From Escherichia coli (GTDB taxonomy: Bacteria; Pseudomonadota; Gammaproteobacteria; Enterobacterales; Enterobacteriaceae), in assembly GCF_046105845.1 (NCBI RefSeq), contig NZ_CP151004.1: a stretch of 64,000 nucleotides of DNA. One strand, 5' to 3'. Shown one piece after another: positions 59,906 to 60,051 of this stretch. The notes under the pieces were generated by a model that saw only the letters and a program-made list of their open reading frames with translations, was not told where the DNA came from and made no database searches. The translations under genes were made by a program, and so were the position numbers. Positions within the stretch are counted from its first letter, which is position 1. Each line of letters begins with the position of its first letter.

Positions 59906-59932
59906 TTATCGGCCTGAATTGCGCAAAGTTTA
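59906..59932 (-). promoter_or_regulatory. Sigma-28 (FliA) class 3 promoter for fliDST
   Basis: Minus strand reads TAAACTTT-N11-GCCGATAA, a near-consensus sigma-28 promoter, upstream of fliD. Confidence 0.7.
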
Positions 59933-60024
59933 CGTTTAATTGTTTTTTTTAATAGCGGGAATAAGGGGCAGAGAAAAGAGTATTTCGGCGACTAACAAAA
60001 AATGGCTGTTTGTGAAAAAAATTC

Positions 60025-60051
60025 TAAAGGTTGTTTTACGACAGACGATAA
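60025..60051 (+). promoter_or_regulatory. Sigma-28 (FliA) class 3 promoter for fliC
   Basis: TAAAGGTT-N11-GACGATAA about 77 bp upstream of the fliC ATG (one mismatch to GCCGATAA). Confidence 0.7.

Follow-up and report, generated by a model that had tools for sequence, protein, structure and literature searches.

Background

The closest described counterpart of the locus considered here is the fliC–fliDST region of Escherichia coli K-12 (Fitzgerald et al. 2014, PMC4183435). ChIP-seq of FliA, the sigma-28 factor, in strain MG1655 located one bound site ahead of fliC, TAAAGGTTGTTTTACGACAGACGATAAC, with a peak score of 110, and another ahead of fliDST, TAAACTTTGCGCAATTCAGACCGATAAC, with a peak score of 43 (PMC4183435 Table 2). 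Deletion of fliA reduced fliC RNA from 2319 to 11 and fliDST RNA from 633 to 356, approximately twofold (PMC4183435), and an independent array study of a fliA deletion (Zhao et al.) reported decreases of 78.8-fold for fliC and 9.9-fold for fliD (PMC1935009). For the fliC promoter, fliCp, the action of sigma-28 holoenzyme has been followed in vitro by transcription, gel shift and DNase footprinting (bioRxiv 10.1101/2020.01.02.893370).

The fliDST operon of K-12 is subject to FlhDC-dependent class 2 control in addition to FliA-dependent class 3 control. FlhDC occupies the fliDST promoter in ChIP-qPCR, deletion of flhD or flhC brings fliDST RNA down to 3, and the sigma-28 promoter of the operon adds little to steady-state fliDST RNA in LB; overexpression of fliA in an flhD deletion brings fliD expression back to at least the wild-type level (PMC4183435 for all four observations). 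Dual class 2/3 promoters are described for the fliDST, flgKL, flgMN, fliAZ and fliL operons of E. coli and Salmonella.

Two further systems bear on the locus. The aer gene has a sigma-28 promoter (Hollands et al. 2010, PMC2859248) whose mapped start follows the -10 octamer at a distance of 6 bp. In Enterobacter, prophage TldR-gRNA repressors silence the host fliC over its FliA -10 element, with GTTAT as the TAM (Wiegand et al., bioRxiv 10.1101/2023.11.30.569447).

Divergent sigma-28 promoters between fliD and fliC

The whole 64,000-nucleotide stretch of E. coli DNA that was analysed, referred to as the window, is collinear with K-12 MG1655 in reverse orientation, and the window and NC_000913.3 coordinates of a given base sum to 2,063,734. 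The locus, its orientation and the length of the gap are shared with the K-12 region of Fitzgerald et al.: fliD and fliC are divergent and separated by 265 bp (59863–60127) in both genomes. By NCBIfam assignment, fliS and fliT come after fliD, and fliA and fliZ after fliC. The gap is 99.2 % identical to that of K-12, with two SNPs at 59913 and 60012, the second of which (G in the window, T in K-12) precedes the fliC -35 box by 13 nt; the gap of O157:H7 gave the same 99.2 % identity as K-12. The flagellin H type differs, the protein having 548 aa in the window and 498 aa (H48) in K-12. None of 5,426 complete E. coli genomes carried the 548-aa flagellin allele exactly. The closest allele was 99.2 % identical over the whole gene but no more than 97.9 % within its first 513 bp, most of the differences falling in the normally conserved N-terminal region; this cluster may reflect a small recombination patch.

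Direct reading and a pattern search with the sigma-28 consensus TAAAGTTT-N11-GCCGATAA recovered two promoter elements in the gap. The first, TAAACTTT-N11-GCCGATAA, is on the minus strand at 59932–59906 and points toward fliD; the second, TAAAGGTT-N11-GACGATAA, is on the plus strand at 60025–60051 and points toward fliC. Over their full length these elements, TAAACTTTGCGCAATTCAGGCCGATAA and TAAAGGTTGTTTTACGACAGACGATAA, have one and two mismatches to the consensus, respectively. The facing -35 boxes are 92 bp apart, the CGA core of the fliD -10 box is at 59911–59909, and 76 nt separate the -10 box from the start codon at fliC, compared with 43 nt at fliD. A preliminary description of this DNA had reported sigma-28 promoters with these motifs on both strands, which was confirmed to the base, and the interval that it gave, 59906–60051, extends from the outer end of one -10 box to that of the other. 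Its account of the elements as intact agrees with boxes that match the consensus at 7/8 to 8/8, spacers of 11 bp and an uninterrupted region. It had also called the arrangement a known one, and the same two motifs are indeed the FliA-bound sites of the K-12 ChIP-seq data (PMC4183435). The divergent pair of FliA promoters is therefore an ordinary, previously described feature of E. coli, with nothing conceptually new. The coordinates of all features are collected in Table 1.

Table 1. Position and description of features in the fliD–fliC region and elsewhere in the window
Feature	Coordinates	Strand	Description
fliD, filament cap protein	58456–59862	-	468 aa; first gene of fliDST; NCBIfam NF005955, 682.9 bits
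fliD 5' leader	59863–59905	-	Shine-Dalgarno AGGA 7 nt before ATG
fliD -10 box GCCGATAA	59906–59913	-	8/8 consensus; K-12 has ACCGATAA; identity 0.98
fliD promoter spacer	59914–59924	-	11 bp; length invariant, identity 0.48
fliD (fliDST) -35 box TAAACTTT	59925–59932	-	7/8 against TAAAGTTT; part of the K-12 FliA ChIP-seq motif
Candidate class 2 (FlhDC-dependent, sigma-70) fliD promoter	59941–59954	-	-10-like TATTAA and start mapped in K-12
Conserved island GAGTATTTCGGCGACTAAC (plus-strand letters)	59978–59996	-	Candidate FlhD4C2 half-site; identity 0.71 against 0.565 around it
A-tract GAAAAAAATTC	60015–60024	+	Directly upstream of the fliC -35 box; identity 0.93 against 0.565 for inter-promoter DNA
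fliC -35 box TAAAGGTT	60025–60032	+	7/8 against TAAAGTTT; same as K-12 ChIP-seq motif
fliC promoter spacer	60033–60043	+	11 bp; length invariant, identity 0.56
fliC -10 box GACGATAA	60044–60051	+	7/8 against GCCGATAA; CGA core intact, 60046–60048
fliC 5' leader	60052–60127	+	Shine-Dalgarno AGGA at 60113–60116
fliC, flagellin (FliC/FljB)	60128–61774	+	548 aa; NCBIfam NF005953, 777.1 bits
fliA, sigma-28 factor reading both promoters	61938–62657	+	NCBIfam NF005413, 363.5 bits
Rfam matches (four tRNAs, one longer tRNA, RseX, DsrA)	355–427, 2763–2835, 4584–4656, 19911–19983, 20975–21061, 30019–30108, 38444–38529

The fliC motif of the window is identical to the K-12 ChIP-seq motif. The fliD motif agrees with K-12 at 26 of its 27 positions; the exception is 59913, the first base of the -10 box, which is G in the window and A in K-12. 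The octamer GCCGATAA that results is shared by the window, a second E. coli allele (allele 2, below) and other genera, so that on these letters the fliD class 3 promoter of the K-12 reference, with ACCGATAA, is the one further from consensus. Two other motifs bound by FliA in K-12 are unchanged in the window, namely TGCAGAAA-N11-GCCGATAA of fliA (fliAZ) at 61886–61912 and TCAAGACG-N11-GCCGATAA of fliL (fliLMNOPQR) at 44167–44194, and the regulon context is therefore intact. Four more exact copies of the octamer GCCGATAA occur in the window, at 12468 (+), 23690 (+), 54309 (+) and 62968 (-).

We consider it highly probable, at about 0.95, that the gap holds two divergent class 3 promoters read by sigma-28 holoenzyme. 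The motifs, their geometry, rarity and conservation, and the lack of an insertion come from the present analysis, and the FliA and FlhDC occupancy and FliA dependence from the K-12 literature; all of the functional evidence is from K-12 and none from the strain of the window. On this reading, holoenzyme containing FliA, encoded approximately 1.9 kb downstream, would recognise each promoter, the plus-strand element driving monocistronic fliC, with nearly complete dependence, and the minus-strand element driving fliDST. The 92-bp interval would contain the A-rich tract beside the fliC -35 box and, most likely, an FlhDC-dependent class 2 promoter of fliDST. Transcription of the operon would begin at the class 2 promoter, the FliA promoter coming into use at a later stage or when filaments are repaired. 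FlgM keeps FliA inactive until the hook-basal body is complete, and both sigma-28 promoters would consequently fire late in assembly.

It was found that the gap is free of insertion sequences, as the preliminary description had also noted: its length is that of K-12, and full-length identity reaches 99 % or more in 3,136 complete E. coli genomes, in many of which it is 100 %. The absence of an insertion sequence is a meaningful statement because the gap is disrupted by one in E. coli 23CRST049 (NZ_AP045822.1; locus L004, 1–2614), where the IS66-family element ISEc43 is located between the fliD and fliC promoters. Partial coverage of the gap was seen in only about 13 of 4,513 matching genomes. 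With its late flagellar control region intact, the strain should express flagellin and cap under FliA if the rest of the regulon works.

Allelic diversity and conservation of the promoters

The fliD–fliC gap exists in E. coli as three deeply diverged alleles, with approximately 70 % identity or less. Allele 1, comprising the window, K-12 and O157:H7, was found in 3,187 genomes. Allele 2, that of ST131, was found in approximately 1,326 genomes and is about 70 % identical to allele 1; it carries a 19-bp deletion corresponding to window positions 59996–60014, which leaves 73 bp between the -35 boxes in place of 92. Allele 3, represented by loci L014 and L015 and found in approximately 834–858 genomes, has the fliC promoter TAAAGTTC-N11-GCCGATAC; it was too diverged for blastn and was found via the fliC coding sequence. 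Its arrangement is presumably Salmonella-like. A scan of species representatives added E. whittamii, another Escherichia species, Enterobacteriaceae UBA2655, [Erwinia] mediterraneensis and Erwinia sp. OLFS4.

To express conservation, mean pairwise identity was calculated over the 13 distinct intergenic sequences of this set. Identity was 0.98 for both the -10 and the -35 box of fliD and 0.96 for both boxes of fliC, against 0.48 for the fliD spacer and 0.56 for the fliC spacer, both of which were always 11 bp long, and 0.565 for the inter-promoter DNA. No other positions in the gap are as well conserved as the fliD boxes. The fliC boxes of loci L006–L013 match by construction, as these loci were retrieved with the fliC box pattern; the fliD boxes throughout, and all boxes of alleles 2 and 3, are independent of the motif. 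At the level of sequence, the comparison across alleles is a textbook sigma-28 footprint, in which the octamers are kept at a fixed spacing of 11 bp and the sequence of the spacer is free to change.

The alleles accompany the flagellin H-type and differ in inter-promoter distance (92–93 against 73 bp), in the spacers, in the leader and in the fliD -10 box. Instead of hitch-hiking neutrally with the antigen gene, this variation could determine, lineage by lineage, how fliDST transcription is shared between class 2 and class 3 or how strongly fliC is expressed; we regard such a role as unlikely.

In one carrier of allele 3, E. coli SWYHX138.261ft (L014), the annotation gives fliA as a pseudogene containing an internal stop (3826–4545 of that locus), and the intact-looking fliC and fliD sigma-28 promoters there would accordingly be without their sigma factor. 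Two open reading frames of 58 aa each in the window, at 59940–60116 (+) and 59992–60168 (-), were rejected as genes, because the alleles differ within them by the 19-bp indel and by other indels.

Dual control of fliDST

The gap holds more than the two sigma-28 promoters, in that fliDST is dually regulated, a point absent from the preliminary description. The fliD side fits the described class 2/3 operons, having a FliA promoter beside a region occupied by FlhDC. A fliD transcription start has been mapped in K-12 79 nt upstream of the ATG, equivalent to window 59941 (-), with a value of 3 in an unlabelled, read-count-like column (Kim et al. 2012, PMC3415461 Table S1). This start precedes the sigma-28 -35 box by 9 nt and has TATTAA at -13 to -8 (59954–59949), which suggests that it is the class 2 start of fliDST. 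The same table gives starts near other class 2 genes, 24 nt upstream of flhB and 30 nt upstream of fliA. Its entries for fliC and tar are 326 and 408 nt upstream and off the sigma-28 promoters, the weak 'fliC' start corresponding to window 59802, inside fliD. Three further genes, motA, flgK and tsr, are missing from the table, and neither fliC nor tar has a start there that coincides with its sigma-28 promoter. Because no sigma-28 starts are recorded in it at all, the data set is uninformative, not contradictory, on the sigma-28 starts of fliC and fliD.

A scan with the sigma-70 consensus returned no match in the intergenic region. This is expected because a class 2 promoter is activator-dependent, and it leaves that promoter without sequence support from the scan. 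A candidate activator site is the conserved island between the promoters (Table 1), in which ATTTC is invariant in 12 of the 13 sequences and which the 19-bp inter-allele indel adjoins. The FlhDC box reportedly consists of two inverted AAYGS-N2-3-AAATARCG half-sites approximately 10–12 bp apart, a consensus said to be that of Stafford et al. 2005. A comparison by hand with this half-site gave 8 matching positions out of 13 for the island of the window and 11 out of 13 for that of allele 3, and the second half-site is poor.

Alternative explanations

The motifs could in principle be chance matches in an AT-rich gap, without promoter function. At a threshold of three or fewer mismatches the two sites are still the only matches in the window, and shuffled sequences gave a mean of 0.78 matches, with 20 of 100 shuffles reaching two. 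As this count is not significant alone, the case rests on the threshold of two or fewer mismatches together with position and orientation. At the stricter threshold, the two sites are the sole matches in 64 kb against an expectation of 0.10, and none of 100 shuffles gave two or more. Both sites fall within one 265-bp gap, each correctly oriented toward its own late, class 3 flagellar gene. They are also identical or nearly identical to FliA sites found by ChIP-seq, and across the alleles the boxes are kept while the spacers drift, so that chance is effectively refuted. An origin of similarly negligible probability is that the boxes are kept mainly for a binder other than sigma-28, such as FlhD4C2 or a TldR-type repressor with a GTTAT TAM. 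The Enterobacter targets of TldR do share with the window the architecture of the fliD–fliC gap and the presence of GTTAT on the complement of the -10 box: the opposite strand of the fliC -10 box, GTTATCGTC, contains GTTAT, as does the complement of each -10 box, so that the reverse complement of the -10 (GTTATCG...) holds the TAM, and the Enterobacter guides target the -10 region of the host fliC (bioRxiv 10.1101/2023.11.30.569447). However, TldR exploits an existing promoter, which would leave the conservation of that promoter unexplained. A TldR target would also reach into the spacer, which varies, whereas the conserved positions are exactly the sigma-28 octamers at 11-bp spacing. Neither a tldR gene nor a second flagellin gene was seen in the examined part of the window. 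Nothing in that part suggests that TldR is acting there, and the link is confined to the kind of promoter.

The remaining alternative concerns the fliD side only and, while very improbable, is the least remote of the three. It holds that the fliD motif is vestigial or minor, that fliDST is transcribed essentially from the FlhDC-activated sigma-70 promoter and that fliC alone has a working sigma-28 promoter. More than half of the K-12 fliDST RNA is retained without fliA and nearly all of it is lost without flhD or flhC, FlhDC occupies the region (PMC4183435), and the one retrieved fliD start is upstream of the sigma-28 -35 box (PMC3415461), all of which is in keeping with this alternative. Against it, FliA occupies the fliD site in vivo, its overexpression restores fliD in the flhD deletion (both PMC4183435), and the second study found the larger, 9.9-fold drop of fliD in a fliA deletion (PMC1935009). 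In addition, the fliD boxes have the highest conservation of the gap among alleles that were retrieved without reference to them, and the -10 octamer of the window is a perfect GCCGATAA, nearer to consensus than that of K-12. These observations argue for a functional class 3 promoter on the fliD side.

Predicted transcription starts and leaders

The aer promoter has the same consensus, TAAAGTTT-N11-GCCGATAA, as the pair described here, and its start position was used as a guide. By this analogy, the sigma-28 start of fliC is predicted at about 60058–60060 (+), with a leader of about 68–70 nt, and that of fliD at about 59898–59901 (-), with a leader of about 36–39 nt. The aer promoter differs in requiring CRP at -49.5, whereas no conserved CRP site was found in the fliD–fliC gap. 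A CRP-like TGTGA at 60010–60014 was discarded, since K-12 lacks the base at 60012 on which it depends and allele 2 lacks the segment in which it lies. The A-tract adjoining the fliC -35 box (Table 1) may act like an UP element for the fliC promoter.

The first 39 nt or so of the fliC leader have an identity of 0.86 among the 13 sequences. Folding of the leader gave two small hairpins, at 60061–60074 and 60077–60088, with the stems CGGC/GCCG and GGGU/ACCC. The fourth pair of the second hairpin is U-A, U-G or C-G in different lineages, and the first hairpin shows one compensatory change. This provides weak but consistent support for a structure at the 5' end of the fliC leader, possibly in the form of mRNA-stabilising stem-loops. 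An Rfam search of the region and of the whole window gave no match inside the intergenic region.

Other features of the window

The 3' UTR of fliC is approximately 42 nt long (61775–61816), running from the stop codon at 61772–61774 through a terminator hairpin at 61795–61810 and a T-run. At this position K-12 has the 195-nt region of the sRNA FliX (L001, 2913–3107). Of the FliX body, approximately 150 nt are missing from the window, among them the REP sequence that belongs to the active FliX-S form, and the terminator alone is shared. Of 5,426 E. coli genomes, 3,503 have a K-12-like FliX over at least 80 % of its length. Because the body is absent here and present in that share of the genomes, the feedback of FliX on fliC and the S10 operon may be strain-specific.

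Elsewhere in the window, Rfam identified four tRNAs with identical scores, one longer tRNA, RseX and DsrA (Table 1), none of them unusual. We take this set to match the asnT–asnV/serU/dsrA neighbourhood of K-12.
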